NCBI GenBank assembly: GCA_016342415.1
Contig: JAEIOD010000010.1
Span: 87,351 to 151,350, forward strand
Reading direction: 5' to 3'
DNA: 64,000 nucleotides
Origin: Clostridiales bacterium
Lineage (GTDB): Bacteria; Bacillota; Clostridia; Peptostreptococcales; Acidaminobacteraceae
Under the pieces are notes generated by a model. It did no database searches and was not told the origin of the DNA. It saw only the letters and a list, made by a program, of their open reading frames with translations. Positions within the stretch are counted from its first letter, which is position 1, and every line of letters begins with the position of its first letter. Below, piece by piece: positions 25,199 through 51,335 of the stretch. The position numbers and the translations under genes are program-made.

Positions 25199-27763
25199 TT
25201 AAATTTCTTCAAGCAATCTGACAGTACCTCTATTTCCATCTACTTCAATGAGATCTCCATCTTTAATTAAATCCATAATCCCGACTAATCCACTAACGCA
25301 CGGTATCCCATACTCTCTTGCAATAATACTACCATGTTGTAATGGTCCACCTATTTCCATAACAACACCAGAAGCATTAGTAAAGATTGGTGTCCAAGAA
25401 GGTTCCGTTGCTCGTACAATCAGTATTTCACCTGGTATAATTGATTTTTCATATGGCGTGTGAAGTACTTTTGCCTTTCCGACTACTTTACCTGGCGCTA
25501 TTGAGTCACCAATAATATCACCGTTTTCAATCTTAATTTTTGCTTTATGGATTTTCCCACGGCTGTCAATTACAAGAGGCCATTGTGTTACTGATTCAAC
25601 AGTCTTATAACCTCTTAGATTCTTTTCTCTTGTAAACATCAAGTCGAATTTTTCATCTTTCTGAGCTTTTGTGATTTCCTCTATTGTTAAGTCAAATATA
25701 TGACAGGCCTCTTCAAGTCTGCCTTCTGTCACCCATTTTCCAGCAATCTCAAGACAGATTTTATGGAGAATTGAAAATGCATTAACAAGCATATATTTAG
25801 GATACTCTCTGTAACCAAAAGTTGCTTTTAATCTTTCAGCAGCTTTAATGAACTTCTTATCCTGACCTTTGTCTTTAGCGACTTGCAGAAGTTTATTATA
25901 TGCCTCTTCTCTCTTGGATTTAACAATTAGATTTTGATTCTCAGATGGATTGATTTGTATTAATCGGTCATATAGCATACCGACATCTTCATATATTCTT
26001 TTAGTAGCAACATCAATCTCTTTAAAACCACGCGACGAGTATAGTCTCATAAACTTACCATAATGAGTCATAAAACCGACAGGAAAATTATCTGTTTTAA
26101 TTTTTAATATAAAATGAGCTCTGGATTTTATTTCCCTAAACTCAGAAGAACATGCCATTAAAAATAGAAGATTGCCCATTTCACTTGTAGGATTTCCATC
26201 TAGATCCATATTCAAAGCAATGAGTTCAGTATCCAGATCATCATTCTTAAAGATTTTTTTTAACTTCTGCTGTGACAACATACCCGCAAATATCGGTGAT
26301 ACATTATCCATCAAAGTATCAAAAGCTGTCATGGTTTCATTTACCAATTCATCTATAGTTTTTTTACAGTCAAGATTCTCTATGACAGCAGTAAAGATAT
26401 CCACGCTTTTCAAATAATCTTTGACGATCCTTTCTTGATCTGAATAAACAGCTTTAAAAAGATCTGGTAGCATCAAGAGTGCTTTTTTTAGAGATCTTCC
26501 AATATACCCTTTTGTGCCCTCTGGTTTGCCTTCAAAAGAATGTGATTCAAGATCAATGTTCTCAAATATCTTCTTAATGTTCCCATCATAAGTATCCAAG
26601 GCTTTTCTACCTGTTTTTTTCCCAAGCACTTTCTGATATGCAGTGACACTCAAGTATTCTCGACCATTAACGACTGGAGCGGTTCCATTTATCTGGGTAC
26701 TGAGTAAACCACTCTTAGTTGAATAGATGAGTTTTTTCCATATATCCATACCCATAATGCTCATAGATTCGTCAATACCTTGAGTCATCATCAATAGATC
26801 AATATAAAATCTTTTTGTTTCTCCTGGTTCAGTCAGAAGTTCTTCGAAAAAAGGTAGGTGAGTTGTGATTGGTCTTGCTTGAAGAAGATACAGTTGATCT
26901 GCTTCATATGCCCATTCAACATCAACAGGAAAATTATAATGTTGCTCACACCTTTTGATCAATGAAGATAGTTCTATTATTTGTATCTCCAATAGAGCTG
27001 GTTGCTCTTTATTTATATTTTCTTTTTCCACCATGCCACCATTAGGATTTAACTGAAGTTCAATCTCTTTAATGTTGACTTTTTTCTCAATTATTTTCTT
27101 GTCAACTATGTCATAGATGTACATATCCGGTGTTACAATCCCCGATACAATTGCTTCTCCTAATCCGAAACTGGCATTGATAACGACTTCATCATAAGCA
27201 TTATTCAGTGGATTTAATGAAAAACCAACACCACTGACCTCAGACGCAATTTGTCTTTGAATAATGACTGCAATCGAAGTGTTTTCTAACGGAATGTCCT
27301 TTTGCTTTTTATAAGACATTACCCTGTAGTCGAAACAGGAAGAAAATGCCAAAGCAACAGTTTCTTCTAAATCTTCTATCTTCTTGCCTAAATACGTTTC
27401 ATACATACCTGCAAACGATACACCTTTTAAATCCTCTTCTGGAGATGATGAACGTACTGCAAAAAACTTGTCTTCTAAAATCATGATTTGATTGTCGAAC
27501 ATTTCTTTTTGTTGTTTATCAAATTTCAGAATCATTGCCAACGACTTTACTTTATCGCAATTTTCCTTAGTTGTATCTTTTAGTGTATTTAAAAATTGTT
27601 CAGATTCTTTGATTTCTGACAACCAAGACTCAAAAAAATCGACACTTAGAACAATGCCTTCCGGTACAGGAAAACCAGCCTTTTTTGTTTCGATTAGTAC
27701 TTTTGCCTTTCCACCGACTTGCAATATAGAAGGCACCTTTTTTACATCAAAACTATGAATCAT
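25199..27763 (-). CDS. PEP-utilizing enzyme family phosphotransferase (rifampin-phosphotransferase/PEP-synthase-like), paralog 2
   Basis: Track ORF 25199..27802. Likely start is the internal MIHSFDVKK at 27763, which has a strong SD AAGGAGG and overlaps the TetR stop by 11 nt. C-terminal swivel domain GGPLQHGSIIAREYGIPCVSG. Confidence 0.75.
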   Translation of the reverse strand: MIHSFDVKKVPSILQVGGKAKVLIETKKAGFPVPEGIVLSVDFFESWLSEIKESEQFLNTLKDTTKENCDKVKSLAMILKFDKQQKEMFDNQIMILEDKFFAVRSSSPEEDLKGVSFAGMYETYLGKKIEDLEETVALAFSSCFDYRVMSYKKQKDIPLENTSIAVIIQRQIASEVSGVGFSLNPLNNAYDEVVINASFGLGEAIVSGIVTPDMYIYDIVDKKIIEKKVNIKEIELQLNPNGGMVEKENINKEQPALLEIQIIELSSLIKRCEQHYNFPVDVEWAYEADQLYLLQARPITTHLPFFEELLTEPGETKRFYIDLLMMTQGIDESMSIMGMDIWKKLIYSTKSGLLSTQINGTAPVVNGREYLSVTAYQKVLGKKTGRKALDTYDGNIKKIFENIDLESHSFEGKPEGTKGYIGRSLKKALLMLPDLFKAVYSDQERIVKDYLKSVDIFTAVIENLDCKKTIDELVNETMTAFDTLMDNVSPIFAGMLSQQKLKKIFKNDDLDTELIALNMDLDGNPTSEMGNLLFLMACSSEFREIKSRAHFILKIKTDNFPVGFMTHYGKFMRLYSSRGFKEIDVATKRIYEDVGMLYDRLIQINPSENQNLIVKSKREEAYNKLLQVAKDKGQDKKFIKAAERLKATFGYREYPKYMLVNAFSILHKICLEIAGKWVTEGRLEEACHIFDLTIEEITKAQKDEKFDLMFTREKNLRGYKTVESVTQWPLVIDSRGKIHKAKIKIENGDIIGDSIAPGKVVGKAKVLHTPYEKSIIPGEILIVRATEPSWTPIFTNASGVVMEIGGPLQHGSIIAREYGIPCVSGLVGIMDLIKDGDLIEVDGNRGTVRLLEEI

Positions 27764-28373
27764 CAGAGCCTCCTTTATAAAAGTTGTTTTTAAGTATTTC
27801 ATAGTAACTATTACATTCTTCTTTTAGATTTAAAATATCTGTTTCACTTACAGTTACTTCAGGTTTTTCCAATAAATTTTTATATAAACCTCTGAAGGTC
27901 CACTTAATAATATGCAGCATTTTTTTTATCTCTAATTCATCTTTAAACAATGAATAATCAACGTTATGACTAAAAAACCTTTCTCTCCAATCACGGAGTT
28001 CTGTCGGATTTGCATATTTAAAAATATGGTCTTTGTATTTTTCACCGAACTCAATCATATAAGGATATTCAGCTATAACATCCAATCTGTATTTTGTGAG
28101 TTCACAAACTCTTTTAATGATATCGCTATTGTCCCAATCGATATAGTCGTTCACTTCACTAACACCCTTTTGCAAGGAGTAAAAATTAAGGTAATCAAAC
28201 AAGGTTTCCTTGTCCTTAAAATAATGGTAAAGAATACCTCTAGAGATTTTGGCTTTTTGAACAATCAAATTCGTTGATGCTTTTTTATACTCATTTTTGG
28301 AAAATACTTCAAATGATGTTTTTATGATATTTTTCACCATTTCATTACTTGTATCAATATGATCAAAGTCCAT
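27753..28373 (-). CDS. TetR/AcrR-family transcriptional regulator, co-transcribed with paralog 2
   Basis: HTH STNLIVQKAKISRGILYHYFKDKETLF. Likely start MDFDHIDTS (28373) with SD AAGGGAG. Track ORF extends further upstream. Confidence 0.75.
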   Translation of the reverse strand: MDFDHIDTSNEMVKNIIKTSFEVFSKNEYKKASTNLIVQKAKISRGILYHYFKDKETLFDYLNFYSLQKGVSEVNDYIDWDNSDIIKRVCELTKYRLDVIAEYPYMIEFGEKYKDHIFKYANPTELRDWRERFFSHNVDYSLFKDELEIKKMLHIIKWTFRGLYKNLLEKPEVTVSETDILNLKEECNSYYEILKNNFYKGGSDDS

Positions 28374-28403
28374 TTCTTCACTCCCTTTACTCAATATAAG
28401 TAT

Positions 28404-28457
28404 CATCGACAACTTCTGTCTATAATAATCATACATCCATCGACAGAAGTTGTCAAT
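28404..28457 (-). promoter_or_regulatory. candidate TetR operator pair plus promoter: inverted 13-bp repeats GACAACTTCTGTC / GACAGAAGTTGTC flanking a TATAAT-like element
   Basis: Seen in sequence at 28408-28420 and 28442-28454. Each half-site has palindromic GACA/TGTC ends. Lies 30-80 nt upstream of the tetR start. Confidence 0.5.
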
Positions 28458-28507
28458 GTGGATTTTTGTTAAGAATAGCAATCAAAAAGCACTTCATAGT
28501 GAAATGC

Positions 28508-29710
28508 TTAAGAATTAATTGTTTTTTTGAGATACCTTAAGTTCTTTTGTATTAACTGTTTTTTTATCCATGAAACAGTTTTAAAATAAGATTGTAAATA
28601 AACAGCGAGAAATGCTAAAAGACCAATGACTCTTATCCTTGAAAGAAAATATATCATTTCATTTATCGAGGTAGCATATGGCGAATTACCAGAAGAAAAC
28701 TCTTTAATAAACCATCTGTAAAAATCTCCGATGGACTCTATACTATACGATCCATCATAATAAACATCAATATAAAACTCAAATGATATGACTTTATAAA
28801 TTAACAGACTTAAAACAATCAAACTCATTAACTTAAGAAAACTTGATCTGACATTATACTCATTAAGACAACGCCACTGATGAATGTAGTGCTTGGTGTT
28901 AAAAAGCTTAAAATTTTTAATGAACTGTTTGTATTCATTCACCATTAATTTAACAAGCTCTATTATTATGAACACGCCCATAATGAAAAAAACTATTTTG
29001 ATCGTCATGGAAAACTGAGTTTTATAGTTTAAGGCATCACTCACTTCAAGGTTATTTATCATCAAACCTTCATCAGCCATTATATTTTCTAAAGCTTTTC
29101 TTTCCAGATTGATATCACTTCTTACTTCCCCATGTACAATCTTGTGTTCACTAAATATGTTTACGAATATGTCATTTGAGATAACAGCTACTTTTTCTAC
29201 ATCGTAAAACGGATTTACAATGAGAAGATCCTCATCTTCTATTACTCCAATTATTGTAAATTTCTTTTTTGAAATTTCTATTTCTTTTCCAATCACATCT
29301 GTACTATTAAACAAATCCTTTGTAATACTTTTACCAATTACTATATATCGTTCATAATCTTCCATATCACTTTTTAAGAAATACGATCCAGTTATTAAAG
29401 GGTATTTATTGAATCTGAAAAAATTCTCATCCGATCCATACAGATTTGCTCTTGTTGATCCATACTGACTTGTGATTGAAATTTTTTCCCTACTGTAAAA
29501 ATTGGCATCCAACTCACTGAACGTCTTATCAATAGTTTTAAACGGTATGCCTTCTACAACGCTTGTATCCTTATCCAAGTCTATAGACCAATGAAATTCC
29601 GATTTACCTACAGAATACTTATTGATATAAAAAGAACATACAATAACAATTAGAATCAGTAGAAGAAGAATCACTGCCCGAATTAGACCAAATAAAATTT
29701 TTTTATTCAT
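28508..29710 (-). CDS. MacB/FtsX-like membrane permease-type protein (N-terminal TM, ~230-aa extracytoplasmic domain, C-terminal TM bundle)
   Basis: Topology inferred from hydrophobicity. Start overlaps the HlyD stop by 8 nt. Assignment to the FtsX family is tentative. Confidence 0.45.
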   Translation of the reverse strand: MNKKILFGLIRAVILLLLILIVIVCSFYINKYSVGKSEFHWSIDLDKDTSVVEGIPFKTIDKTFSELDANFYSREKISITSQYGSTRANLYGSDENFFRFNKYPLITGSYFLKSDMEDYERYIVIGKSITKDLFNSTDVIGKEIEISKKKFTIIGVIEDEDLLIVNPFYDVEKVAVISNDIFVNIFSEHKIVHGEVRSDINLERKALENIMADEGLMINNLEVSDALNYKTQFSMTIKIVFFIMGVFIIIELVKLMVNEYKQFIKNFKLFNTKHYIHQWRCLNEYNVRSSFLKLMSLIVLSLLIYKVISFEFYIDVYYDGSYSIESIGDFYRWFIKEFSSGNSPYATSINEMIYFLSRIRVIGLLAFLAVYLQSYFKTVSWIKKQLIQKNLRYLKKTINS

Positions 29711-30992
29711 CTATAATCACCTTGTCGCCATCACTAAGGTCCCTTGAACTTGATGTTATGATTTTCTCGTTTCCATAAAGCCCATTGACAATACCAATGT
29801 TTACATCATCCGATTCCCCAAGCAGCACTTCCTGGAATTTTACTGTATACGACTTACCAAACGCAGTATCTTGTTCTATAAGAACAAATACATTCTCTAT
29901 TTGTGTCCTCGCATATATGGCCGATCTAGGAATCCTGACATCATAATCTCCATATTGCTTTCTCATAAACAAATCGCAGATTTCTCCACCCATTAGATCA
30001 TCATGTTCAATATCCAAAATCAAAGTTACGACTCCACTATAATCCGATTTTCTCTTTTCAATGACCACACCATTAACTACTTCACCCAACTCTTTTATTG
30101 TTACAGAAAACTTATCTCCTATACTTATGAATTTTGACGTTTCATTTTGAAAATCAGAATGTACTTCGTAACCGTCTTTATCACTACTTAAAATATACAA
30201 GGGTGTAGAAGAGTTTATCAACATACCTTCAGTGTACGGAAGCGCCTCGACGATTCCGTCTTCATTTGCTTTGACAATACAGGATTCTATATCTTCTTCA
30301 AGTGAAATGATATCTTCTTTTATCGTCATAATGGAGAGATTGTATTCTTTTATTTGTATTTCAATGCCAAGTATTTCGTTTTTAATTAGTTCATTATTTT
30401 TTAGGTTTGCCTCAACTTGTTTCTCATAATTTTCTTTTGCTGTATTATAACTATTTTCCCAATTCAAAAGCTCATTTTTTGAAATGCCTCCACTTTCATA
30501 AATAATCATTTGATTATCTAAATTTTCTTTTGATTGGTTTAATTCTCTGACCAATCTATCTAGTGATTCACTCTTTAATCCAAGAAGTGCATTATTTTTT
30601 GATATTTCCACCCTATTAAGTGCAAGATCTAATTTACTGAGTTCTGCATTCAGATTCTTTATTTGCTTCTCTAAAGGTGTTGTATCAAGAACCATGAGTA
30701 TGTCACCTTTGGTTACTTCATCGTACTTCTTCGTATGAAGCTCTAAAATTCTAACCGGAATATCATAATACAATTCAAATTTGCTCTTACGTAAAACTTG
30801 ACCTTCACTTCTCATGACTTTCAAGAGACTTCCTGAATCGACTTTCTCAACAGTCACTCTAGGTAAAGTCCATGCAAGAAAAGATTTTGAAAAAAAAGTG
30901 AAAATGAGTATAAATATTATAAATGCTATAAAAATAGTTTTAGCTCTATTTTTTCCGATTCTCATATAATCATTGATTTTCATTATTATCAT
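29703..30992 (-). CDS. HlyD-family membrane-fusion/periplasmic adaptor-like protein
   Basis: N-terminal TM, long coiled-coil segments (IKNLNAELSKLDLALNRVEI..., QVEANLKNNELIKNEILGIEIQIKEYNL), C-terminal beta-barrel-like region. ATGA overlap with the upstream permease. Confidence 0.65.
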   Translation of the reverse strand: MIIMKINDYMRIGKNRAKTIFIAFIIFILIFTFFSKSFLAWTLPRVTVEKVDSGSLLKVMRSEGQVLRKSKFELYYDIPVRILELHTKKYDEVTKGDILMVLDTTPLEKQIKNLNAELSKLDLALNRVEISKNNALLGLKSESLDRLVRELNQSKENLDNQMIIYESGGISKNELLNWENSYNTAKENYEKQVEANLKNNELIKNEILGIEIQIKEYNLSIMTIKEDIISLEEDIESCIVKANEDGIVEALPYTEGMLINSSTPLYILSSDKDGYEVHSDFQNETSKFISIGDKFSVTIKELGEVVNGVVIEKRKSDYSGVVTLILDIEHDDLMGGEICDLFMRKQYGDYDVRIPRSAIYARTQIENVFVLIEQDTAFGKSYTVKFQEVLLGESDDVNIGIVNGLYGNEKIITSSSRDLSDGDKVIIDE

Positions 30993-31867
30993 CCCTTTGT
31001 CGTTGAATTGGAAACACCTTCTACTAAATAATTTTCACCATATAAAAACATAATTATCAGTGGCAACAAGTATATGAATCCTGCTGTAAATAAAACGCCT
31101 ATCTCAGACTCACTAACACTAGAAAGATAAATTGATAATGGATGTTTGCTTATATCATCTAAGAAAATAAGTGGTTGTTCAACCATGTTCCAATTATCAA
31201 TAAATCCCAAAATGGCAAGAGATGCAATGCCACCTTTTGTTATCGGAAAAACAATTTTAAAGAATATGGTGAAAAGATTCGCCCCATCAATTTTTGCTGA
31301 TTCGATATAATCATTCGGTATCGACATCATAAATTGTCTCAATAAAAACACACCAAAGGCACTGAATATACCTGGTAGTATAATAGCCGCTCTTGTATCC
31401 AGAAGATTAAGCCAGTTCAATGTAAAATAATTTGGTACCAATGTAACTTGAAAAGGCATCATCATGATGATTATGTATGAAAAGAAAATAACTTCTCTGC
31501 CTCTAAACTGCACTTTGGCAAAAACAAAAGCAGCCATCGACGATATCAATACTTGACCCAATACGATTGGCACCACAAGAAATACAGAATTCCAAAACAT
31601 TTTCAGAAATTGCTGTGTTTCTACCAGAACCACATTGTAATTTGAAAGAGTAATTTTATTAGGAACAAATCTTAAAAAGAAGTACCCTATCATTTCAGGT
31701 ATAGAGTTATCCGTTTCAGAAAACTCATAATATTTTTCAGTAATTTCATCACTTGCCATAAATGAGCCGGTCATTGTTAGAATCAATGGTGAAATGAACA
31801 CAAACGCTATCATCATAAGAACAACTGCTAATACATGTTTCCTTTTTTTATTGCTCATTTTTATCAT
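30989..31867 (-). CDS. carbohydrate ABC transporter permease (CUT1, MalG-like)
   Basis: EAA motif ESAKIDGANLFTIFFKIVFPITKGG, 6 TM. Confidence 0.8.
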   Translation of the reverse strand: MIKMSNKKRKHVLAVVLMMIAFVFISPLILTMTGSFMASDEITEKYYEFSETDNSIPEMIGYFFLRFVPNKITLSNYNVVLVETQQFLKMFWNSVFLVVPIVLGQVLISSMAAFVFAKVQFRGREVIFFSYIIIMMMPFQVTLVPNYFTLNWLNLLDTRAAIILPGIFSAFGVFLLRQFMMSIPNDYIESAKIDGANLFTIFFKIVFPITKGGIASLAILGFIDNWNMVEQPLIFLDDISKHPLSIYLSSVSESEIGVLFTAGFIYLLPLIIMFLYGENYLVEGVSNSTTKG

Positions 31868-32736
31868 TCTCCAATAGCCTTACTAATTTTCTTTTGAACT
31901 ATAAACATCATAAAAACTATAACCGTCACAACAATCATCATTAGAATGGCAGCTGAGACAAGTTTATAATAATCCAGTTTACTAAATTGATTGTTCATAA
32001 AATGTTGAAGCATATAAACACTTTGATGGGGATATGCACCTGCAAGTATATATACTTCTCTGAACACTTTAAATGAATTCATTATTGAAATCACAAATAC
32101 AAAAAATGTAGTGGGCATCAAATAAATAAGTGTTATAAAACTGAACTGTTGAAATGAATTTGCACCATCAATACTGGCAGCCTCATAGTATTCAATTGGA
32201 ATGTTCTGAAGTCCTGCCCAAAACAGAATTATATTGTATCCCACATTTTTCCACACATATATAACCACAACTACTATCATTGTCTTATCAGAACTAAGCC
32301 AATTGACTCCTTCAATTCCAATTCTACTGGCTATGGCATTAATCAATCCACTGCCGTCAAATATCATTTCAAAAAAGAGAATAATTGAAGCAACAGGCAC
32401 AACAAGCGGTACAATAAACGCCGTTCTTAACTGTCTTTTCATTGGTAAGTTCTTATTAAGCATAAGTGCTATAAACAGAGATATGCCCATAATAAGTACA
32501 ACACTTATAATTGTAAATTTTGTGGTGTTGGCCGCTGCTAGTCTAAATGAACTGTTGGAGTACAACTGGACATAATTCCCTACTCCAAATTTTTCTCCAG
32601 TAGAGGTGAGTTGGCTAAAAGAAAGTTTTAACATCCAAATAAAAGGCAATACAAAGAATACTCCCATTCCCAATAAACTTGGAAGAATCAGAAAAAATGC
32701 TTCTTTTTTTTCTTTCGACTTTACATTAAGACTCAT
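31864..32736 (-). CDS. carbohydrate ABC transporter permease (CUT1, MalF-like)
   Basis: EAA motif EAASIDGANSFQQFSFITLIYLMPT, 6 TM. ATGA overlap with the next gene. Confidence 0.8.
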   Translation of the reverse strand: MSLNVKSKEKKEAFFLILPSLLGMGVFFVLPFIWMLKLSFSQLTSTGEKFGVGNYVQLYSNSSFRLAAANTTKFTIISVVLIMGISLFIALMLNKNLPMKRQLRTAFIVPLVVPVASIILFFEMIFDGSGLINAIASRIGIEGVNWLSSDKTMIVVVVIYVWKNVGYNIILFWAGLQNIPIEYYEAASIDGANSFQQFSFITLIYLMPTTFFVFVISIMNSFKVFREVYILAGAYPHQSVYMLQHFMNNQFSKLDYYKLVSAAILMMIVVTVIVFMMFIVQKKISKAIGE

Positions 32737-32781
32737 TGCTCACCTCAAATTCAAAGAGTTGCATTACCTTTTTTTTCAATT

Positions 32782-35007
32782 TTATTCATTGAGATATAAA
32801 GTAACCTTATTTTGAATTGTATCAATTACATCTTCAAGACTCTTCTCTCCATCAAGATAACTGAAGATCTCTTCTTTAATGGATTCATATAGAATATTTT
32901 CCATTAACATTTTATTACCAATCATCTTATCTAATTCTTCTAAAGCTGCCACTTCCTCATCTAAAATATATCTGGCATCAGGAAAGGTTGTCAATATGGC
33001 TTCAATACGTGTATTATACACATCCACCATGGTCGTTCTATAGTCATTGTTTATACTAAAGCCATTTAACTCACTAATTTCCTGTCCTTTAGGAGAAATT
33101 AGAAACTTGATAAATTCCCAACTCTCAACAGGATATTCCGTACTAGAGTTAATACCAACCTTTATAGCACCCATTCTTATGCCATCGTCTCCTGGAGACT
33201 TCCATATTTCAAATGAATCCTCAAACAACTCAAAGGGGGCATTTAAAGCATAATTCGCCAAATAAAATGGAAATACGATGATGTTATTTCTGCCTTCTCC
33301 TAAACCTTGAAAAGTAGTATAGATATTCACATCTTCATCAATGAAATCTCCATCTTTAATTCTTTTAGTAACTTCAAGACTTCTCTTGAACTTTTCATCA
33401 TTAAAACGAGCTACTTTATTTTCATAGTCAATGTACTTATCCAAATTAATTAGGAAAGTAGCCATGATGTCCCCTTGGAAATTTTGATCGAATACTTTTG
33501 CTTCTGATTCACTCGATTCAACTATATCAAGGACCGTCTCAAAATCATCAAGGTCCCAACTACTATCTACAGTTGCACCAAGTTCTTGTAACAGTTTTTG
33601 ATTTATCACATTTGCATAATAATAGTATCTAACAGGAAATACATACAGTTCATCATCAAGTCTTGAATTTTCAATGATATTTGCATTATAGTCGGTAATA
33701 TCAAATTCTGGATCGTTATTGATCATCTCATCTAAAGCAAGCAGATAACCTTTCTGAGAAAAAGTAACTTCAGGGAAATCAGACATAAAAATATCCGCTC
33801 CATCACCAGTCATCATTTTTAGATTTAACTTTTCTATATATTCTTTACTATCAACCTTGCCAAATTCCACTATTTCAATTTTTATGCCAGGGTTCTCTTT
33901 TTCAAATGCTGTAGCTGTTTTTCTATAAACGCCATTGAAATCAAGAAGCACTTGCATCGTTAACACGACTGAATCAACTTCATTTTCCCTGGCTGTTATT
34001 GTGGCTTCATCAGCATCTCCATAAAAAACGATTCTCATCTTGTCCGTTTTGTAAAGCATGGCATATATATTACTATTTTCAGTTATAACAAAGCCAAACG
34101 AAAATTGAAACTCGCTTAACTGGTTCATATCCAGAACCATCGCTTCATTTTCAAGTTCAGAATCGTAACTGTATATCGAACCTTCACTCAGCTGATATAT
34201 CCTGTCTGTATAAGAATCATAGACCAAAGAGGACAAGCCCAGTTTATCTTCAAATTTTAATTCGACTAATGTATCTCCAGTTTCCGGATTTATTTTTGTA
34301 ATGGCTGTGGTCGGAATATCAACATCTTCTAACCTTGAAAGATAAAAAATATCTCCCTCTTTATCAATTACAAAATCTGACGCACTTTGCTTATCATAAA
34401 TCATTTCAATGCCATATTCCCCATTGTATTTCTCAATGGCACCATTTGATTTAAGAAGGTATAAACTATCATCATCATACAACATTTTAACGATCATCTT
34501 GTCTTGAATGTCTTCAACAGTACCTTCAATCGTCATAAAAAAGTCTTGCTTTTCTGTTATTCCAGTCTCCAAATCCATCTTTACAAGTTGGTAACTCGCA
34601 TCTACAATCATTGACGATTCAATTGGTTTTATATCCAGTGTGAAAATATACATATTATCATCTTTATCTAAAGTAAAAACTTGCCCGCTACCTTCAAAAT
34701 CAACATCAATTGTCTTGATCAACTGACCATCACTGTCCAGTAAAAGATAACCTTTCTCATCTTTTAACTCATCTTCGTGATAGGCTATTACTTCACCTTT
34801 ACTGTTGACGATCATTGACTGAACAAATAATTCTGAAATGTCATCAGCAATTTTTATTTCCATATACTGTTTATCTTCAGTTGTATTAACTGCTTCAATG
34901 TCTTCATCTTCTTTTATATCTACTCCATCATCTTGTATGACGACATATATGATGACTACAATTGCAATTACAACCGCTATCACTATTAACATTTTACTAA
35001 GTTTCAT
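32782..35007 (-). CDS. membrane-anchored extracellular solute-binding protein (SBP family 1) with ~370-aa N-terminal extra domain
   Basis: Likely start MKLSKMLIVIAVVIAIVVIIYVV with SD GGAGGTG (ATG 35007). Track ORF starts at 35052. C-terminal half has the SBP_bac_1 pattern (TAFEKENPGIKIEIVEFGK...). N-terminal half is beta-rich with no recognised domain. Confidence 0.65.
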   Translation of the reverse strand: MKLSKMLIVIAVVIAIVVIIYVVIQDDGVDIKEDEDIEAVNTTEDKQYMEIKIADDISELFVQSMIVNSKGEVIAYHEDELKDEKGYLLLDSDGQLIKTIDVDFEGSGQVFTLDKDDNMYIFTLDIKPIESSMIVDASYQLVKMDLETGITEKQDFFMTIEGTVEDIQDKMIVKMLYDDDSLYLLKSNGAIEKYNGEYGIEMIYDKQSASDFVIDKEGDIFYLSRLEDVDIPTTAITKINPETGDTLVELKFEDKLGLSSLVYDSYTDRIYQLSEGSIYSYDSELENEAMVLDMNQLSEFQFSFGFVITENSNIYAMLYKTDKMRIVFYGDADEATITARENEVDSVVLTMQVLLDFNGVYRKTATAFEKENPGIKIEIVEFGKVDSKEYIEKLNLKMMTGDGADIFMSDFPEVTFSQKGYLLALDEMINNDPEFDITDYNANIIENSRLDDELYVFPVRYYYYANVINQKLLQELGATVDSSWDLDDFETVLDIVESSESEAKVFDQNFQGDIMATFLINLDKYIDYENKVARFNDEKFKRSLEVTKRIKDGDFIDEDVNIYTTFQGLGEGRNNIIVFPFYLANYALNAPFELFEDSFEIWKSPGDDGIRMGAIKVGINSSTEYPVESWEFIKFLISPKGQEISELNGFSINNDYRTTMVDVYNTRIEAILTTFPDARYILDEEVAALEELDKMIGNKMLMENILYESIKEEIFSYLDGEKSLEDVIDTIQNKVTLYLNE

Positions 35008-35607
35008 AGTTGCACCTCCATGATTGATTTCACTACTTGACTTACTTCTCATAAAACATAATACCCCATTATTAAAACTAAAAACTTCAATTCAATCCCC
35101 CCAAAACAACACCTGGGGATTTAGCTCTTTTAAACAAGTAGTCCATAAAACAAAATCATGGAACAATACATACGACCAGTTTGATCGATGTTTCCAGTGA
35201 AACATAATCTTATAACATCTCTAGGCTCCATCAGTTTTGAATTTATATTCATCATAAAAAGATTATAGAAATGCAACGTCTGATTTACAGCAATTATAAC
35301 AGTTTTAAGATTAATTTCCAGACTGTTTAGAAGTAGCTTTTTATGTAATACTTGCAAAAAAAAATAAGAAAAAGATTTTCTCTTTTTCTTATACACGTTT
35401 ACTTGTATTACCCGAACTTGGTACATTAATGACATTGAAACTATGATTTTATAATCAAAAGTATCATAAACATTATTATAAATATTGGAATGTTAAGCAT
35501 ATATACCATTTTTAAAAAATACTTCATGTATCTCTTAAAAAGATATCTGTTTCTTTCAATTTATTTTTTAAAAACATATGAGAATCGTGTGATAAAACAC
35601 CTAAACA

Positions 35608-35760
35608 TTATTTTACTTTAATGTTGAAGTATTTTTTGGACGCATTACTTGAAGCTATCATTTGATCAAACAACTTTTTATTTAGACTGACTTCAGTGCT
35701 TTGCACTCTTTTTTTTGAACCTTTATAATAGTCGTCATTATCCTTTAAATCAAATTCCAT
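35608..35760 (-). CDS. small Lys-rich ORF (50 aa), below the ORF-track length cutoff
   Basis: MEFDLKDNDDYYKGSKKRVQSTEVSLNKKLFDQMIASSNASKKYFNIKVK with SD AAGAGGA 8 nt upstream, just downstream of small paralog A. Confidence 0.3.
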   Translation of the reverse strand: MEFDLKDNDDYYKGSKKRVQSTEVSLNKKLFDQMIASSNASKKYFNIKVK

Positions 35761-35812
35761 ATTTTATTCCTCTTTACTATTCTTAATTGATTTAATAGAA
35801 TATCATATTCTA

Positions 35813-36106
35813 TTAGTTTACTATTCCTTCTTTTTTATTTTTTTGTAATATGCTATTTGCAAAAGCACATAAACGGCTGACTTTATTGCTGGCAGTATAT
35901 TTTTTTTGAAAGCTAGAATCTTGAAACTGATCATTCAAAAAAGCTGCAATTTCACGTACTTCATTTTCAAAAAGATCACTATTCTGATCACTGAGTAAAT
36001 CTAAGAAAACTTCAATATTATCATTATCAATGTCTTTTAAGGACGCTAAAATACTTTTCAATTCCTCATATTTGTAAACATTCATATTTATTTTCTCCTT
36101 CAACAT
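35813..36106 (-). CDS. small acidic helical protein, paralog A of a three-member tandem family
   Basis: 97 aa. Shares the pattern ..SIL..I...N.DFE.F.E.....D...E..I.FL... with 36594..36869 and 36897..37175. Confidence 0.5.
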   Translation of the reverse strand: MLKEKINMNVYKYEELKSILASLKDIDNDNIEVFLDLLSDQNSDLFENEVREIAAFLNDQFQDSSFQKKYTASNKVSRLCAFANSILQKNKKEGIVN

Positions 36107-36593
36107 GATTCAAGTCAATAATCAAATGTCACCTTATCGATTATGGAAACTAGCTATTCAAAAAAAGTAGTATCTAAAGATTGCAGAATCTCCCCTACAA
36201 TGCCATAAGGTTTTCATTCATCTTGGTATCTTATTTGTTAAAAACACACGGAGTGCAACTGAACAATTATCACAATTTGTCTTGTAACGTATCCAGTAAT
36301 GGTGTTTGTATTGTCAATTGACTGTTCATTTTTCGACTGCCGCATCCTTTCAATATTCTTTTAAAAACCACATAATGTATAATAATCGACAAATGTTTCA
36401 GTTCAAAACAAAATTTTGGGTACAAAAATAACATCACCCTATATGGTGAACTCAAATCCTCTTAACGAATATTTCGAAAAGTATTCAAGTACATTAATAA
36501 ATAGTAGCCATGCTCATTATTAGTATATGATTTTAATCATTTCCCATAAAGTTCTCCTTAATCAGTCTCTTTGCTGATAGGTTTATCATCAGT

Positions 36594-36869
36594 TTATTCT
36601 AATAAAACCCCTTGATAAGCATTTATAACTATATCATTCATACCGATAATAATTTCTTTTAATTTCGACTGAGGCAACTCAATTAATTCAGCATCACAGT
36701 TAATACCTAAATCAAGGATTAAGAAATCTAAAATATTATCTAGTGTGTCTTTAGTTACCCCAATTTTTATTGAGATAATCGCTTCTGCAAACGAGTCAAA
36801 ATCAAATATATTTTTTTCATCAACAACACTTAATATTTTATTAAATCTACGAGTTGTGATTTTACCCAC
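36594..36869 (-). CDS. small acidic helical protein, paralog B
   Basis: 91 aa. Aligns with paralog C: RRF / DFDSFAEAI~DFESFIEVM / LDNILDFLILDLGINCDAEL~IDEIIGFLSEEMGVESDADI / KEIIIGMNDIVINAY~KQLINFTNQIVENLY. Confidence 0.55.
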   Translation of the reverse strand: MGKITTRRFNKILSVVDEKNIFDFDSFAEAIISIKIGVTKDTLDNILDFLILDLGINCDAELIELPQSKLKEIIIGMNDIVINAYQGVLLE

Positions 36870-36896
36870 TAGATCACCTCACGTAATAAATAATAG

Positions 36897-37175
36897 CTAT
36901 TTTTCATCATACAAATTTTCAACAATTTGGTTAGTAAAATTTATTAATTGTTTGACTTCACCAACTGACATATTGCAAATATCTGCGTCACTCTCAACTC
37001 CCATTTCCTCTGATAAAAATCCTATAATCTCATCAATTTCCGAATCAAACAGAATATCAAAACGATTGTCCATGACTTCAATAAATGATTCGAAATCAAC
37101 ATTGTTTTCCTTATTTATATCCTTTAATATACTTCTAAACGTATCATGTGTAAATCTTCTCATTACAACCTCCAT
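36897..37175 (-). CDS. small acidic helical protein, paralog C
   Basis: 92 aa, see paralog B. Confidence 0.55.
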   Translation of the reverse strand: MEVVMRRFTHDTFRSILKDINKENNVDFESFIEVMDNRFDILFDSEIDEIIGFLSEEMGVESDADICNMSVGEVKQLINFTNQIVENLYDEK

Positions 37176-38147
37176 TAACTGCCATCAATTAATCCACCTG
37201 ATTAAAATAAGTCATCTCAAATGAACATAACAATCAAGTAAACATTTAAGCACTAATCTTAAAATAATATCAGCATCAACCATTATTCCCTTCTACTTGG
37301 TTTTTATCTGTAGGAAAATCTCCCTACTTCAATAACATTTAAAAACCAATTTCATTTCTTCAATATTTCTTAAGAGTATTATAATCCTGATTAATCCATT
37401 TGTAAATCTTTTTTTTTCAATAATTCAACTTATTTTTTTAAAAAAATTAAGTTCTTTGAAACCGTTGGTACAACATCATGACAACGTTTTCCTACATTTT
37501 TGTTTTTAAGTGTTTCATCTTCGAAATAAATACAAAAAAAAAATCTTATCATTCATGGATAATTGTACTTAATTAACATCTCCATCTGAATAATAATGGA
37601 TATTTCTCTGTGGATATGGTATCGTTACCCTATTTCTACAGATTGTTCTTATCTATAACTTCTGTAATCATGCTTTTGACATGATCAATATCGTCTTTAT
37701 AAATCGCCGATACTAGAAATGGCCAGTCTTGGTAAAAACGCTATTACATCATCAAGAAGTTTATCCATTGTTTACTCTTATTTTTGACAGTCAACTTTTA
37801 GTTTTTTCTACATATTACGAACTCTATATGCATTCGACTACCAAGAAAATATGACTATATCGCTCAGTATTGAAACCACATTACCTAATCTGATACTAGG
37901 AGGTCCATCAATAACTTAATATAAGCCTAAGAAAGAAATCAAAGAACATGATAACCGATGTTATTCATTTCCTTACTCAAATTATTGACAACCTCCTTAT
38001 GATATTAATTCTAACAGCGTTTTCTTATCTTTATCTATCAAATAATCCTTTCCTTTGTTTTACTGATATGGTCAATGGTTTTACCTTTTTTCCGATTTAC
38101 ATGGTTTTTATTTTTTTAAGTACACTGATATATTATTATCCAGTTGC

Positions 38148-38414
38148 TTATTCGAAACTGTCCTTTTCCTCTTTTAACACTTCTAATGTTTCTTCATCTA
38201 GTCCAAGTTCACTTTCCTTGTTCAGTTTCATAGTCTTTTTCTTAATAATGGCATGAATTTTCGGGAAAAGTTCCACCTTTTTTAGATTCTTTCCAAGTAG
38301 GGTCAAGAGAGCTCCTAGAGCTGCACCAATTGCAAATAATTTAACCCTTTTGCCTTTAATGTCTTTTTTCAGCACTTCATTTTCGATTTCAAGTTTTTTT
38401 ATTTTCTTCTTCAT
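38148..38414 (-). CDS. hypothetical single-TM Lys/Glu-rich protein (88 aa)
   Basis: Lys-rich N-terminus, TM LFAIGAALGALLTLLG, acidic C-terminus. Preferred over the overlapping antisense ORF 37948..38256. Confidence 0.4.
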   Translation of the reverse strand: MKKKIKKLEIENEVLKKDIKGKRVKLFAIGAALGALLTLLGKNLKKVELFPKIHAIIKKKTMKLNKESELGLDEETLEVLKEEKDSFE

Positions 38415-39071
38415 TGTTTACCTTCTTTCTCATTCATTTCAGCTATTTCCTCATTTAAACAATCAATTTCCTCAGCTAAATTTTTATTTCTTTTTTATTC
38501 CACCATTTTCACTCAATAAAGCATTATATCGCTTTTCATGCCCTTATGTGTATGTCTTTCCTTTCACCGGAAATCGTATCAATAGAGTAAACTATCACTA
38601 CACCAACTGAAATAGAAATTAGAATGAAAAAAGCTACAGAAATATCAACTTTTGCAATAATAAATCAATTGGTAATGCTGCATCATTCAGTATTGCAATA
38701 ACAGCAATTCTGATTGAAAACAATAGAGCTATTATAATTTATTTGCATACGCACCTCCACGTTTTTCTTACCCTGATAAAGCATTAAGAAACATTTGAAA
38801 AATACATTTTCAGATATTGATATATATCTTCAGTTTTATGACTTAAAAATATCTATCATATTCAACTTTTCACAACGAAGCTTTGAAAATTGAAGACAAT
38901 TGTTTGACAGTGTGTTTTTCATTTTCCGCTCATACGTCTTGTCTTATGAATATTCCCGAAAAAAAACCACTAATCCTAATTCCGATCAATGGTTATTTCT
39001 GTTTGCTATATAAAATTATAATAGATGTGCTTCTCATATTTGCCAATCGCTCTTTAATCTAATTGAGTATG

Positions 39072-39317
39072 CTACAGTGGCTTGTTATATTGATTGGCAC
39101 TGAAATAGTCCATTATGCGTAAAATCTCTTTATCAGTCAGCACGAGTATTTCAATATCAAGCTTAAGAAAATCTTTATCATCAGCGATATTCTTTATGCA
39201 TACTGAGTTTTCCTCTGACCGATTAAAGTGCTGTTCAATGATATTTTCTATATCATCAAGTAATTTTAGAGATTTATATGAAACACTTTCATTAAAATTT
39301 ATTTTTTTATACCTCAC
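39072..39317 (-). CDS. hypothetical protein (81 aa)
   Basis: ORF only. Confidence 0.3.
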   Translation of the reverse strand: MRYKKINFNESVSYKSLKLLDDIENIIEQHFNRSEENSVCIKNIADDKDFLKLDIEILVLTDKEILRIMDYFSANQYNKPL

Positions 39318-39472
39318 TTTGTTGTCTTAAGATTTGAAAAAAGCATGATTAATATTGTATGTTTTCTTTTATTAGACGAATTATATGATATTTAATTCTT
39401 CGTGTCAATCCATTTAAACAGATACTTTTTTTATATAAAAATATCAGTTTATAACTTATGTTCAAAAGATAT

Positions 39473-41080
39473 TTATTGGAAATTACTAAGCTCTCTACAT
39501 GTACACGACTTTATTTCTACCATCTTTTTTTGCGTCATAAACCGTTGATCAGCGGTATTTACGAGTTTTTCCAAACTTACTTTATCATGTGTTGTCGCCA
39601 AACCAAAACTCATGGTAACCGAAATCTCATTTCCCTCAAATGTCATGATAGTTTTTTCTAAAATCATACGTAGATTTTCTGCTGCTACCACAGCATGCTC
39701 TATTGTCGTGCTTCTCATAAGAATTAAAAATTCCTCTCCTCCCCATCGACAAATAAGATCACTTTCTCTTGTATTGTTCATCATACATTTTGATATTTCT
39801 TTCAACACAAAATCACCACAATTATGTCCATAAACATCATTGACACGTTTAAAATGGTCAATATCACATAAGATAACTGTAAGTGGAAAATCATGATGAT
39901 TCTTCTTCGTGTTTAGCTTATCATAAATTTTCATCATTGATCTTCGGTTATGCAGTTCTGTTAAAGTATCTCTTTCTGAATGCTTACGTAGATATGATTT
40001 GACTATTCTTTCACTATAGCGGTAATAATTAAGTAAGAAAACGAGAAGTATTACGATTACTATTACAGAGATAGATAAGGTTCTAGATATCAGATATCCT
40101 TGTAAGAAGTCCTTTTCAGGAACTACAATTCCAATTTTCCAAAAATCATTTTTAATGGTTTCCAAATCAGTGAATATAGTATAATACCATTTTCCATTAA
40201 CTTTAAATCTATACAGCTGTTTTATTGGTTTCTTAGCGTATTGAAATGTTTCCATAATGACTTCTTCATCAACAATGTTAACCTTAGTAGATCTAATAAT
40301 CTCATCGGAATTGATTAAATCATTGGTAGTTGTAAAAGCAACTATACTACTTTTATTATTTATAATAATCGCCTCACCATTGTCACTAATTTCAAGATTT
40401 TTTATGTAATCTGAAATGCCTTTCAGTTTAAAATCAAAACTAAAAGCACCAACGACTTCATTATCGATAATAATTGGCGTACCTACAGTAATACCCAAAT
40501 CCTGGTCAGTAAATAAAGTATAGACTGGCGTCCAAAAAATATCTTTTTTTGCCTTTGCTCCAACATACCATGGTCTGTTTCTAGGATCATATTCGTCTAA
40601 TGGTGAACTCGTTTCTTCAATTATCTCAAAATCATGATTATAATGCTTCCAAGTTATGTATGGAACCGATGAATCACGATAAATGGTTTTAACCGACAGC
40701 GTTTCATCTTCATTTTTCTTCAGCATGAAGAAATTTCCATTCTCATATCCAATGTTAAGTGCCCTAATCGATGCATAACGATTTAATATTTGTACACCTA
40801 ATTTTTCAAGTGTTTCATAATCTTTAATTTCATTTTGGTATGCATTTAAATAATCTTCAAAAAACATGTTGGCATTTACAACAGGATACAGGTAGACTTC
40901 AATTTTATTGTTCACAGAACTAGATGTTTTAAATAAAAACTCTTCCGCTAAACTCTTGGAAGTATCAAAAATGATCTTCAACCCATATATAGATGTGATG
41001 ATTACAATCAACAACATCAGCAATATGCTTGGTAAAAAAAACTTGTCCCTTGCTTGTTCAATATTCATAATAACCTCCAT
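39473..41080 (-). CDS. sensor diguanylate cyclase (TM-dCache_1-TM-GGDEF)
   Basis: N-terminal TM, ~280-aa extracytoplasmic Cache-like domain, second TM, then GGDEF with RWGGEEF. Confidence 0.8.
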   Translation of the reverse strand: MEVIMNIEQARDKFFLPSILLMLLIVIITSIYGLKIIFDTSKSLAEEFLFKTSSSVNNKIEVYLYPVVNANMFFEDYLNAYQNEIKDYETLEKLGVQILNRYASIRALNIGYENGNFFMLKKNEDETLSVKTIYRDSSVPYITWKHYNHDFEIIEETSSPLDEYDPRNRPWYVGAKAKKDIFWTPVYTLFTDQDLGITVGTPIIIDNEVVGAFSFDFKLKGISDYIKNLEISDNGEAIIINNKSSIVAFTTTNDLINSDEIIRSTKVNIVDEEVIMETFQYAKKPIKQLYRFKVNGKWYYTIFTDLETIKNDFWKIGIVVPEKDFLQGYLISRTLSISVIVIVILLVFLLNYYRYSERIVKSYLRKHSERDTLTELHNRRSMMKIYDKLNTKKNHHDFPLTVILCDIDHFKRVNDVYGHNCGDFVLKEISKCMMNNTRESDLICRWGGEEFLILMRSTTIEHAVVAAENLRMILEKTIMTFEGNEISVTMSFGLATTHDKVSLEKLVNTADQRFMTQKKMVEIKSCTCRELSNFQ

Positions 41081-50312: not shown

Positions 50313-50975
50313 CTAAAACTCCTCCATCTCCTTAAAACTAAATTCTTCCTTCATTAACGATTTTGCTATATAATAAATATCTTGTTCTTTATCCTTACTG
50401 AATACAAATGCGACCTCACCCTTTTTAAATGACTCCTCTTCAAATAGCGTTTTAACATTAATCACTATTGAAGCACCTTTTTGTTTCAGTGATGCTTGAC
50501 CGAGTCTCCCATGTTCCAAATCACATAATAATGTGCATCTTCTGGTCAACACTTTATGATCAACGTCATCATGATTTTTTCTGTCAGGAAAAACCTTTCT
50601 CAGTGGAACCATTTCCGCTTTTGTGATGTATATACTCCCTATTACAGCAGGTAACAACATCAAGCCAGCAATGACACCGCCTGCTTCGATTGGTAGAAAA
50701 TACGTCAGCATCATAATGATCCAAAAATTCAGTACAAACAAACTGAACACCAGTGCAGCAGGTACCTTGCCAATGTTAATAAAAACGGCAATTGCACTTA
50801 TTGGTCCAACACTTTCAGCACCTTCAAGATCTACATCGATATCGAAAAAATCAAAGTCAAAAAGACCTGTAATCGCAATCAACCAATAGCACTGCATTAA
50901 AATAAGTATTACCGTCGGAATAACATTTACTCCTTTGAATGCAAATCTTAGTAATTCCGTTAGAATCCCCTCCAT
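50313..50975 (-). CDS. NfeD-like (YuaF/YqiJ-type) membrane protein with C-terminal OB-fold
   Basis: Multi-TM N-terminal part, C-terminal soluble OB-like segment (GRLGQASLKQKGASIVINV...GEVAFVF). Directly abuts the flotillin start, the canonical nfeD-flotillin pairing. Confidence 0.7.
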   Translation of the reverse strand: MEGILTELLRFAFKGVNVIPTVILILMQCYWLIAITGLFDFDFFDIDVDLEGAESVGPISAIAVFINIGKVPAALVFSLFVLNFWIIMMLTYFLPIEAGGVIAGLMLLPAVIGSIYITKAEMVPLRKVFPDRKNHDDVDHKVLTRRCTLLCDLEHGRLGQASLKQKGASIVINVKTLFEEESFKKGEVAFVFSKDKEQDIYYIAKSLMKEEFSFKEMEEF

Positions 50976-51335
50976 CTCTTATAATAGTTAACTTAATTAA
51001 ATTTGACACTATGCTTATAACTATTAATAACTCAACTGCATTTGAAACATAAGCTTAGTAAAATTCAAATAAACATCTCCCAGTATTTACTATTATAGCA
51101 AAAAAGACCTACGGAAGAACATAATAAAAGAAGAATTAATCTATATTAAATATGAGTTAATATTTGTGTTCTCTCATAATACAATGAGAGCTTTTTATGT
51201 ATAGAAATTAAGGAAAAGTTAATATTTCAATAGAAGAAGCGTATGTCATATAATCAAAAAAATATCCCGCTTTTGAAAAGGGGATATTGATTCTTCACTT
51301 TATCATATTTTTTATGACCAATAAAAGATTTTAAT

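Follow-up and report, generated by a model that had tools for sequence, protein, structure and literature searches.

A probable CUT1-type ABC importer cassette with an HlyD/YknX-type adaptor and a MacB-derived protein in spore-forming Gram-positive bacteria

The five-gene cassette and its products

The window analyzed here is a 64-kb stretch of DNA (64,000 nucleotides) from a Clostridiales bacterium (contig JAEIOD010000010.1, positions 87,351 to 151,350), and its minus strand carries the transport cassette that is the subject of this report. An earlier note, made from the letters of the window alone, had described five co-oriented genes that combine components of a sugar importer of the ATP-binding cassette (ABC) type with components of an exporter. 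The listing of open reading frames (ORFs) bears out this arrangement: five co-oriented ORFs run from 35007 to 28508 on the minus strand and encode, in this order, a substrate-binding protein (SBP), permease A, permease B, an HlyD-type adaptor, and a MacB-like protein. Coordinates are those of the window, and all features of the cassette lie on the minus strand.

The SBP ORF spans 32782-35052 at its longest and 32782..35007 from M16, permease A occupies 31864-32736 (290 aa, BPD_transp_1), permease B occupies 30989-31867 (292 aa, or 289 aa from M4 at 31858), the adaptor occupies 29703-30992 (429 aa, or 426 aa from M4 at 30983), and the MacB-like protein occupies 28508-29710 (400 aa). The later starts of the SBP (35007) and the adaptor (30983) are backed by homologues and by the NCBI record, that of permease B (31858) follows the homologues, and GGAGGTG lies 7 nt upstream of the SBP start. 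The genes had been described as joined by overlaps of 4 to 8 nt. This holds for three junctions, which overlap by 4, 4, and 8 nt given the longest-ORF starts only, but not for the SBP-permease A junction, which is a 45-nt gap. The later starts turn the two 4-nt overlaps into 5-nt gaps, matching the gene calls of a closely related cassette (L001), and the last three junctions remain packed after this revision, with gaps of no more than 5 nt.

The MacB-like gene ends in a stop codon at which a terminator-like hairpin (28487..28509; a 10-bp stem, then TTTGATTGCT, T-rich tail) starts, and this hairpin is taken as the end of the transcription unit. No convincing terminator was found between the five genes in a terminator scan; a terminator-like site inside the SBP ORF (34121-34092), with three GC pairs, an 8-nt loop, and a poor T tail, was judged to be due to chance. 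The tight packing, the end hairpin, and the outcome of the internal-terminator check all agree with the earlier proposal of one co-expressed unit. Upstream of the SBP gene, a sigma-70-type promoter (35293..35320; TGGAAA-16-TATAAT with a TG extension) is suggested by a consensus match only, and it is kept as a candidate because promoter-like sites were no more frequent in the promoter scan than in shuffled sequence. A scan of 27000-40000 against Rfam found no RNA family, and a riboswitch or leader explanation was therefore dropped.

The SBP, counted from M16, is 741 aa long and is recorded at NCBI under the name "carbohydrate ABC transporter substrate-binding protein" (MBI9012923.1, 741 aa). 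Its N-terminus is a hydrophobic signal-anchor helix without a lipobox cysteine, and its C-terminal half carries a family-1, CUT1-type SBP_bac_1 domain (33079..33918; PF01547, aa 379-658, E value of 2.5e-20) that scores 74 bits against a 26-bit cutoff. The solved structures nearest to this half are sugar-binding proteins, namely, 9ry2 (1.2e-15), CbpC (7x0o), YesO (5z6b), and Lmo0181. Between the anchor and this domain lies an extra domain of ~300 aa that the earlier note did not describe (33988..34875, approximate; ~aa 60-355 in the longest-ORF numbering). When a profile of 14 sequences of this N-terminal domain was compared with the PDB, it matched Pizza6 (4.5e-7), the NHL domain of Brat (1e-5), and the sensor domain of PknD (1rwi; 2.6e-5), and the domain is thus predicted to be an NHL-type six-bladed β-propeller resembling that of PknD. 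The Pfam propeller families had no match in the window's own copy, and weak SBBP, Reg_prop, and NHL matches were obtained in SBP orthologues. In Brassicibacter mesophilus (L010:1-6872), three paralogous long SBPs (~735 aa) and an S8 peptidase are encoded directly upstream of the cassette; the three paralogues suggest that several ligands feed one transporter.

Both permeases match PF00528 (BPD_transp_1), with 58.6 bits for permease A and 55.6 bits for permease B against a cutoff of 26.4 bits, and their top NCBIfam matches are UgpA/UgpE and MalF/MalG. Permease A is a MalF/UgpA/SugA-type transmembrane domain of a type-I importer with the EAA loop EYYEAASIDGA, and its profile matches 7cad chain A ("ABC sugar transporter, permease component," 5e-29), AlgM1, and MalF in the PDB. 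Permease B is a transmembrane domain of the MalG/UgpE type with the EAA loop ESAKIDGA. The EAA residues of permease A are invariant in seven divergent cassettes, and EAA-type loops could be recognized in the inspected permease A sequences and in 72 of 76 permease B sequences. A strict regular expression had suggested that many permease A sequences have lost the loop; inspection revealed ETAxxEGAG variants, and this idea was rejected.

The profile matches of the adaptor are weak: HlyD_D23, HlyD_3, and Biotin_lipoyl_2 in Pfam are all subthreshold, as are RND_mfp, EmrA, type_I_hlyD, and MacA in NCBIfam. Its precomputed Pfam domain is YknX_C (PF25989), and an orthologue (L019) clears the cutoffs for HlyD_D23 (54.2 versus 30 bits) and HlyD_3 (39.3 versus 22.2 bits). 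An N-terminal transmembrane (TM) anchor is followed by lipoyl halves at ~aa 82-103 and ~240 and then by β-barrel and YknX_C domains; the α-hairpin between the lipoyl halves, as read from the sequence, comprises ~136 aa with a GG turn near aa 166. Adaptors in most loci are 363-447 aa long, and those of Lachnospiraceae and Oscillospiraceae reach 520-726 aa, the extra residues being situated between the lipoyl halves and rich in Glu, Lys, Gln, Ala, and Leu, with 3-4% Pro plus Gly. Adaptors of 630-726 aa were observed in Oscillospiraceae, Lachnospiraceae, and Clostridiales genomes (L087:9728-11908, L075:6864-9038, and L085:10136-12034), where ~330-430 coiled-coil-like residues separate the lipoyl halves; we estimate that these hairpins are several times longer than that of MacA. 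Given this position and composition of the extra residues, the α-hairpin may range from ~136 aa in the window to ~430 aa in Lachnospiraceae and Oscillospiraceae, with arms of ~60 to ~210 residues, or roughly 9 to 30 nm. Arms of this length suggest a structure in which the adaptor reaches into or through the cell wall. Taken together, these searches uphold three of the earlier assignments, with PF01547 and the N-terminal anchor identifying a membrane-anchored family-1 SBP, PF00528 and the intact EAA loops identifying two CUT1 permeases, and the profile searches (subthreshold in the window copy), YknX_C, and the above-cutoff orthologue pointing to an HlyD-type membrane-fusion protein.

The sole Pfam family found in the 400-aa protein is MacB_PCD (PF12704; 52 bits versus a 27-bit cutoff). 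Hydropathy places TM helices at ~aa 5-23, 239-257, 290-308, and 352-370, in agreement with the helices of an AlphaFold2 (AF2) model, and an extracytoplasmic domain of the Porter/Sabre type, ~215 aa long, lies between TM1 and TM2. The outer loop between TM3 and TM4 is long (~45 aa) and conserved, with FxFYIDVYYDG in the window and YIxPxxIPxD in relatives, and most members of the family have one or two additional C-terminal helices. Whereas AF2 gave an unusable model from 7 close homologues (pLDDT of 44), an alignment of 33 sequences gave a pLDDT of 83.5 and a pTM of 0.73. Foldseek matched this model to MacB (5gko, 1.6e-13), the MacB periplasmic domain (3ftj, TM-score of 0.71), Spr0695 (5xu1), the YknZ domain (5f9q, TM-score of 0.75), HrtB, LolC/E, and YbbP, so the structure prediction proposed in the earlier note as a check confirmed a MacB outer-domain fold. 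By sequence profile, only the periplasmic domain was matched in the PDB.

An hhalign comparison of the 33-member profile with canonical permeases containing MacB_PCD and FtsX gave a probability of 99.8% for aa 1-293 only, a stretch that runs from TM1 through the outer domain and TM2 into the cytoplasmic loop and stops before TM3. The FtsX Pfam domain (PF02687) was matched neither by the window protein nor by ten relatives, and the coupling motif of canonical MacB-type permeases, ERTREIGxRKAxGA, had no counterpart in the 33-sequence family alignment; at the coupling-helix loop, the AF2 model contains only a 4-residue helix of lower confidence. In MacB, the TM2-TM3 loop with its major coupling helix connects the protein to its ATPase (PMC5985334). 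These comparisons show, at the level of sequence, that the MacB-derived protein keeps TM1, the Porter/Sabre domain, and TM2 and that the FtsX signature and the coupling-helix motif have been lost. Since the conserved ATPase-contacting element is missing, it is improbable that the protein is an independent ABC membrane domain. The earlier description of a MacB/FtsX-like protein is therefore supported in its MacB topology and fold but not in its FtsX domain, and the outer domain is slightly shorter than the ~230 aa given there. The earlier note would have been refuted by profile or structure searches showing that the last two genes are not HlyD/FtsX-like; the searches bore out HlyD-like and MacB-like identities instead.

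Conservation of the cassette and its ATPases

Close homologues are few in a large protein collection, about a dozen each for the 400-aa protein and the adaptor, and a full HMMER search revealed a wider set of proteins of 400-490 aa that contain MacB_PCD only. The locus was read for 13 MacB-like relatives, and all 13 have the same gene context, the full cassette where enough sequence is available, with differing flanking genes; seven of these loci belong to close relatives (L001-L007) and six to distant ones (L009-L012, L093, and L094), all in the cassette. Among the close relatives, L001, L002, and L004 show the full cassette order, L005 lacks the SBP (permease-permease-adaptor-MacB-like), L006 has no permease genes between the SBP and the adaptor-MacB-like pair, and in L007 the adaptor and MacB-like genes come after the end of permease B. 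Comparison with the distant cassettes gives identities of 49-59% (permeases), 29-34% (adaptor), 24-26% (MacB-like protein), and 26-28% (SBP), and judging from these values, the five proteins co-diverge. The cassette is thus one co-inherited unit rather than a chance juxtaposition.

Scanning a genome collection with the MacB-like alignment found nothing. Two peptide patterns from permease A, in contrast, retrieved more than 600 stretches from species-representative genomes, of which 571 were confirmed, and the counts below refer to the best 80 of these 571 stretches. Their genes were labeled with hidden Markov models built from the cassette proteins, using thresholds of our own rather than curated ones. 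The adaptor adjoins permease B in 78 of the 80 loci, an SBP is present in at least 70, and the MacB-like gene is found in about 37; the order seen in the window (long SBP-permease A-permease B-adaptor-MacB-like) occurs in 7. The synteny search that the earlier note had called for was therefore strongly positive, both in the 13 loci read and in the 80 loci of the permease scan. About 40 cassettes contain the adaptor and no MacB-like gene, including many from Paenibacillus that read permease-permease-adaptor-SBP and leave no room for it (e.g., L018). Because roughly half of the cassettes have the adaptor without the MacB-like gene, the importer permeases are the adaptor's constant partners.

Clustering of the neighbor genes and a scan of representatives identified a two-component system, an OmpR-type regulator and a histidine kinase, in 51 of the 80 loci, adjacent to the cassette in 46 of the 51. 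This system probably controls expression of the cassette in most lineages. No two-component system adjoins the cassette of the window or those of its close relatives.

Carriers include many Paenibacillus species, Geosporobacter, Anaerovirgula, Desulfotomaculum, Desulfocucumis, and Candidatus Formimonas, as well as metagenome-assembled genomes (MAGs) of Lachnospiraceae, Oscillospiraceae, and other Clostridia. Complete genomes with the cassette include those of Geosporobacter ferrireducens IRF9, Paenibacillus sp. H1-7, and P. amylolyticus. The cassette is widely conserved in spore-forming Gram-positive bacteria. Typical Firmicutes-type cassettes were also seen on contigs labeled as a Caulobacteraceae MAG (L014, JBLNDG010000084.1) and a Niabella MAG (L023, DASVMC010000347.1), which may be misbinned rather than true occurrences outside the Bacillota. 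In eight Paenibacillus loci, among them L018 (12366-14531), the SBP gene is followed by a gene for a conserved secreted protein of ~720 aa, at a median distance of ~100 nt (29 nt in L018); this protein had no Pfam or NCBIfam family.

No pair of Walker A and LSGGQ motifs was found in any frame of the 64-kb window, so the absence of an ATPase gene reported earlier holds for the whole stretch. In six orthologous cassettes, however, an ATPase gene directly follows the MacB-like gene; five of the products are 365-382 aa long, and the sixth, of 309 aa, is truncated at a contig end. All three of the cassette-internal ATPases that were scanned contain the Pfam domains ABC_tran, OB_MalK, and TOBE_2, and one of them scores 478.7 bits against the UgpC subfamily cutoff of 432. 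By these domain signatures, the cassette-internal ATPases are of the MalK/UgpC importer type and not of the MacB/YknY type, and no ATPase of the latter type was found inside any of about 50 cassettes with a MacB-like gene. Short ABC ATPases (221-227 aa) are encoded near, but not inside, the cassettes of L012/L013 and L064.

CUT1 importers of Firmicutes commonly have no ATPase gene of their own and share the multitask ATPases MsmX/MsmK (PMC7658222 and PMC5730181). Given this sharing, a window without an ATPase gene is ordinary for the importer half of the cassette, and it also fits the MacB-like half because the coupling element has been lost there. From the ATPase-bearing orthologous cassettes and the known MsmX-type sharing in Firmicutes, we infer that the importer is powered by an ATPase dimer of the MalK/MsmX/UgpC type, which docks on the permeases at their EAA loops and is encoded outside the 64-kb window.

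One transport system or two

Judged by its components, an anchored SBP with a propeller and a pair of MalF/MalG-like permeases whose EAA loops are intact, the core of the cassette is a CUT1-type, binding-protein-dependent ABC importer, and two envelope proteins, the HlyD/YknX-type adaptor and the MacB-derived protein, are permanently attached to this importer clade. We therefore favor, with moderate confidence, the interpretation that the five genes encode one transport system, a CUT1-type importer powered in trans and equipped with two envelope accessory proteins, rather than two systems.

The importer half closely resembles known CUT1 systems (MalEFGK2, LpqY-SugABC, and the MsmX-dependent importers of B. 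subtilis) in its family-1 SBP, its two six-helix BPD_transp_1 permeases, and their EAA loops. The ATPase, where the cassette encodes one, is likewise of the MalK/UgpC type with OB_MalK and TOBE domains, and its gene often lies outside the operon and is shared, as is known for MsmX (PMC7658222). Unlike these importers, the cassette has a nearly invariable HlyD-type adaptor and, in about half of the loci, a MacB-fold protein; many of its SBPs combine an N-terminal TM anchor with an NHL-type β-propeller; and its usual neighbor is an OmpR-type two-component system instead of a LacI/AraC-type sugar regulator or glycosidases.

The accessory half recalls YknWXYZ of Bacillus and Spr0693-0694-0695 of S. 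pneumoniae, which also occur in monoderm hosts and include an anchored adaptor with YknX_C and, in YknZ and Spr0695, a partner of MacB topology with a Porter/Sabre domain (the 5xu1 match was aligned over its full length). The cassette differs from both in that it lacks a YknY/Spr0694-type ATPase, the FtsX Pfam signature, and the ERTREIG motif; its TM3-TM4 loop of ~45 aa replaces a short "shoulder," most members have the extra C-terminal helices, and the genes lie inside an importer operon. BceAB-BceRS similarly links a protein with a MacB-fold extracytoplasmic domain to an OmpR-family regulator and a histidine kinase, as the cassette does in most lineages. However, BceB is a 10-helix FtsX-domain permease that has its own BceA ATPase and neither an SBP nor an adaptor, BceS is an intramembrane-sensing kinase whereas the cassette kinases have an outer loop of ~130 aa, and the window's copy has no adjoining two-component system. 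LolCDE-LolA, whose LolC and LolE are among the fold matches, pairs a MacB-fold periplasmic domain with a soluble or tethered carrier and suggests, by analogy, how the MacB-like protein might contact the SBP, although LolCDE is powered by a LolD ATPase of its own and works outward, extracting lipoproteins.

If the five proteins do form one system, its workings can be sketched, with low confidence, from these likenesses. The SBP would capture a carbohydrate-like ligand outside the membrane, and its propeller might help to hold a polymer or a wall-associated substrate. An alternating-access cycle of the permeases, energized by the ATPase supplied in trans, would then bring the ligand into the cell. 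The adaptor might sit on a dimer of the MacB-like protein, as MacA does on MacB and Spr0693 on Spr0695, and build a scaffold or duct within the wall zone, either next to the permeases or above them. The accessory proteins could give the ligand or the SBP access through the wall or relay the conformational cycle of the transporter to the envelope; positioning of the SBP is a further candidate role. A bolder proposal, which we regard as tentative and rather doubtful, is that adaptor-dependent ABC importers are an unrecognized uptake class in monoderm Firmicutes, with a wall-spanning adaptor as duct or scaffold and an ATPase-less MacB relic as its base. If this is true, an importer with an adaptor duct would mirror tripartite efflux pumps.

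Several observations weigh against an importer assembled in this way. The window itself offers no ATPase, so powering in trans is a deduction. Neither a glycoside hydrolase gene nor a gene of sugar catabolism consistently adjoins the cassette across the loci, an unusual situation for CUT1 uptake. Outside this cassette, the only known settings of adaptors and MacB-fold proteins are exporters, extractors, and mechanotransducers (PMC5985334), and given this background, an inward direction is a tentative assignment for the whole assembly. Finally, neighbors in some of the loci hint at envelope or peptide stress and not at nutrition, namely, the two-component system, a D,D-carboxypeptidase, BlaI/BlaR1-like proteins, a Bce-like module, and a RiPP maturase (RiPP, ribosomally synthesized and posttranslationally modified peptide).

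These neighbors are the starting point for a different explanation, in which the cassette is an envelope-defense or extraction machine comparable to BceAB-BceRS or YknWXYZ that removes or senses an envelope-active compound such as a lipopeptide, glycolipid, bacteriocin, or antibiotic. The SBP would be its receptor or acceptor, the adaptor and the MacB-like protein would do the extracytoplasmic work, and the importer-type transmembrane domains together with a MalK-type ATPase would be a recruited motor. The OmpR-type regulator and histidine kinase in 51 of the 80 loci, the descent of the adaptor and the MacB fold from an exporter/extractor lineage, and the missing sugar-catabolic context all speak for it. 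So do several neighbors. About five loci have a Peptidase_S11 D,D-carboxypeptidase gene next to the cassette; in L021, L071 (6577-7551), and L072 it separates the two-component system from the cassette, and in L090 it lies on the downstream side. In L093 (6609-9003), genes for a BlaI/MecI-like repressor and a BlaR1-like M56 sensor directly follow the cassette, L012 has a Bce-like ATPase and FtsX permease with a kinase, and in L005 CcpM radical-SAM and TIGR04066 RiPP maturation genes lie directly upstream of the cassette. Yet none of these sporadic neighbors is found in more than a few loci, and no two-component system adjoins the cassette of the window. The type-I importer fold, the SBP, and a MalK-type ATPase bearing a regulatory domain are characteristic of uptake systems; we know of no established SBP-dependent exporter of the MalFG type. 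We consider a defense machine plausible but unlikely. The RiPP genes form a cluster in their own right at L005:3-1461, where the SBP-less cassette lies 200 nt downstream of CcpM (TIGR04068, a maturase of the Cys-rich-peptide radical-SAM type) and the TIGR04066 protein; RiPP maturation as a general function of the cassette was rejected, the maturase having been found in this locus only.

The two-component system would also suit a signaling complex, in which the transporter parts act as a ligand sensor that reports to the neighboring kinase, as in BceAB-BceS or SBP-kinase pairs, with little or no net transport. The resemblance of the SBP propeller to the sensor propellers of PknD and "Reg_prop" and the presence of several paralogous SBPs in some loci could be read in this way. 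The kinases, however, have their own extracytoplasmic loop (~130 aa), no kinase adjoins the cassette of the window or of its close relatives, and the conserved EAA loops and the complete MalK-type ATPase, where present, argue for an active transport cycle. Signaling as the main function is improbable. The framing of the earlier note, two independent systems that are merely co-transcribed, each missing its own ATPase, would pair a sugar importer with a MacAB/YknXYZ-like exporter served by a YknY-type ATPase encoded elsewhere. Each half does resemble a known separate system, orphan ATPases exist in Firmicutes, and the window has neither kind of ATPase. Against this, all 13 MacB-like members with a locus read share the gene context, 78 of 80 permease-clade loci have the adaptor, about 40 cassettes have it without a MacB-like gene, the MacB-like protein lacks both the FtsX signature and the coupling-helix motif, and the ATPases found inside cassettes are of the MalK type in all six cases and never of the MacB type. 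This framing did not hold up, and we judge it very improbable, which leaves the single importer with two accessory proteins as our preferred interpretation.

In the full-text literature, short of most subscription-journal papers, we found no account of an adaptor or a MacB-like protein in a binding-protein-dependent importer; a mention of PF12704 in a Bifidobacterium paper was set aside because it concerns ordinary MacB-type pumps with their own ATPase. We class the cassette as a CUT1-type ABC importer into which an adaptor and a MacB relic are integrated as subunits and which had apparently not been studied before. The names given to its products in databases are unspecific ("carbohydrate ABC transporter substrate-binding protein," "sugar ABC transporter permease," "hypothetical protein," and "ABC transporter permease"), and the link among the genes is therefore hidden in the annotations. 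What adaptors do in bacteria that lack an outer membrane is recognized as an open question (PMC5985334), and in the cassette an adaptor, often together with a MacB relic that has no ATPase, is linked to a clade of type-I importers. If the parts form one complex, they would widen the repertoire of ABC importer architectures and provide a case of the MacB fold working without its own ATPase. Culturable carriers, such as Paenibacillus species and Geosporobacter ferrireducens, are possible experimental systems.

Other genes in the window

The next gene after the cassette (27753-28481, minus strand) encodes a TetR-family regulator and overlaps a gene for an 867-aa phosphoenolpyruvate (PEP)-utilizing enzyme (25199-27802, minus strand) that is rifamycin-phosphotransferase/PEP-synthase-like and scores under all equivalog cutoffs. 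The TetR gene has a promoter of its own (TTGACA-17-TATGAT at 28456-28428), which is bracketed by a 13-bp inverted repeat, GACAACTTCTGTC at 28454-28442 and GACAGAAGTTGTC at 28420-28408, that looks like a candidate TetR operator. The true start of the regulator is probably the ATG at 28373, after AAGGGAG, and not the TTG at 28481. A second PEP-utilizing enzyme (16533-18941, minus strand; 802 aa) has the same two Pfam domains, PPDK_N and PEP-utilizers, and may be paralogous to the 867-aa enzyme.

Just upstream of the cassette are small acidic ORFs of ~80-97 aa (35813-36106, 36594-36869, and 36897-37175, minus strand, and possibly 39072-39317). Apart from one weak match to DUF6984, they had no Pfam family; by eye, they look paralogous, with RRF..., DF(D/E)SF, and (L/M)G(I/V)..DA in common. 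Farther upstream, a string of genes at 43412-51824 (minus strand), for which PADLOC gave no match, encodes a 1628-aa DUF3686/AAA+ ATPase, a 674-aa SPFH/Band-7 protein, a 220-aa protein without a family, and a DUF7000 protein. This string is adjoined by an IS110-family transposase gene at 41285-42607.

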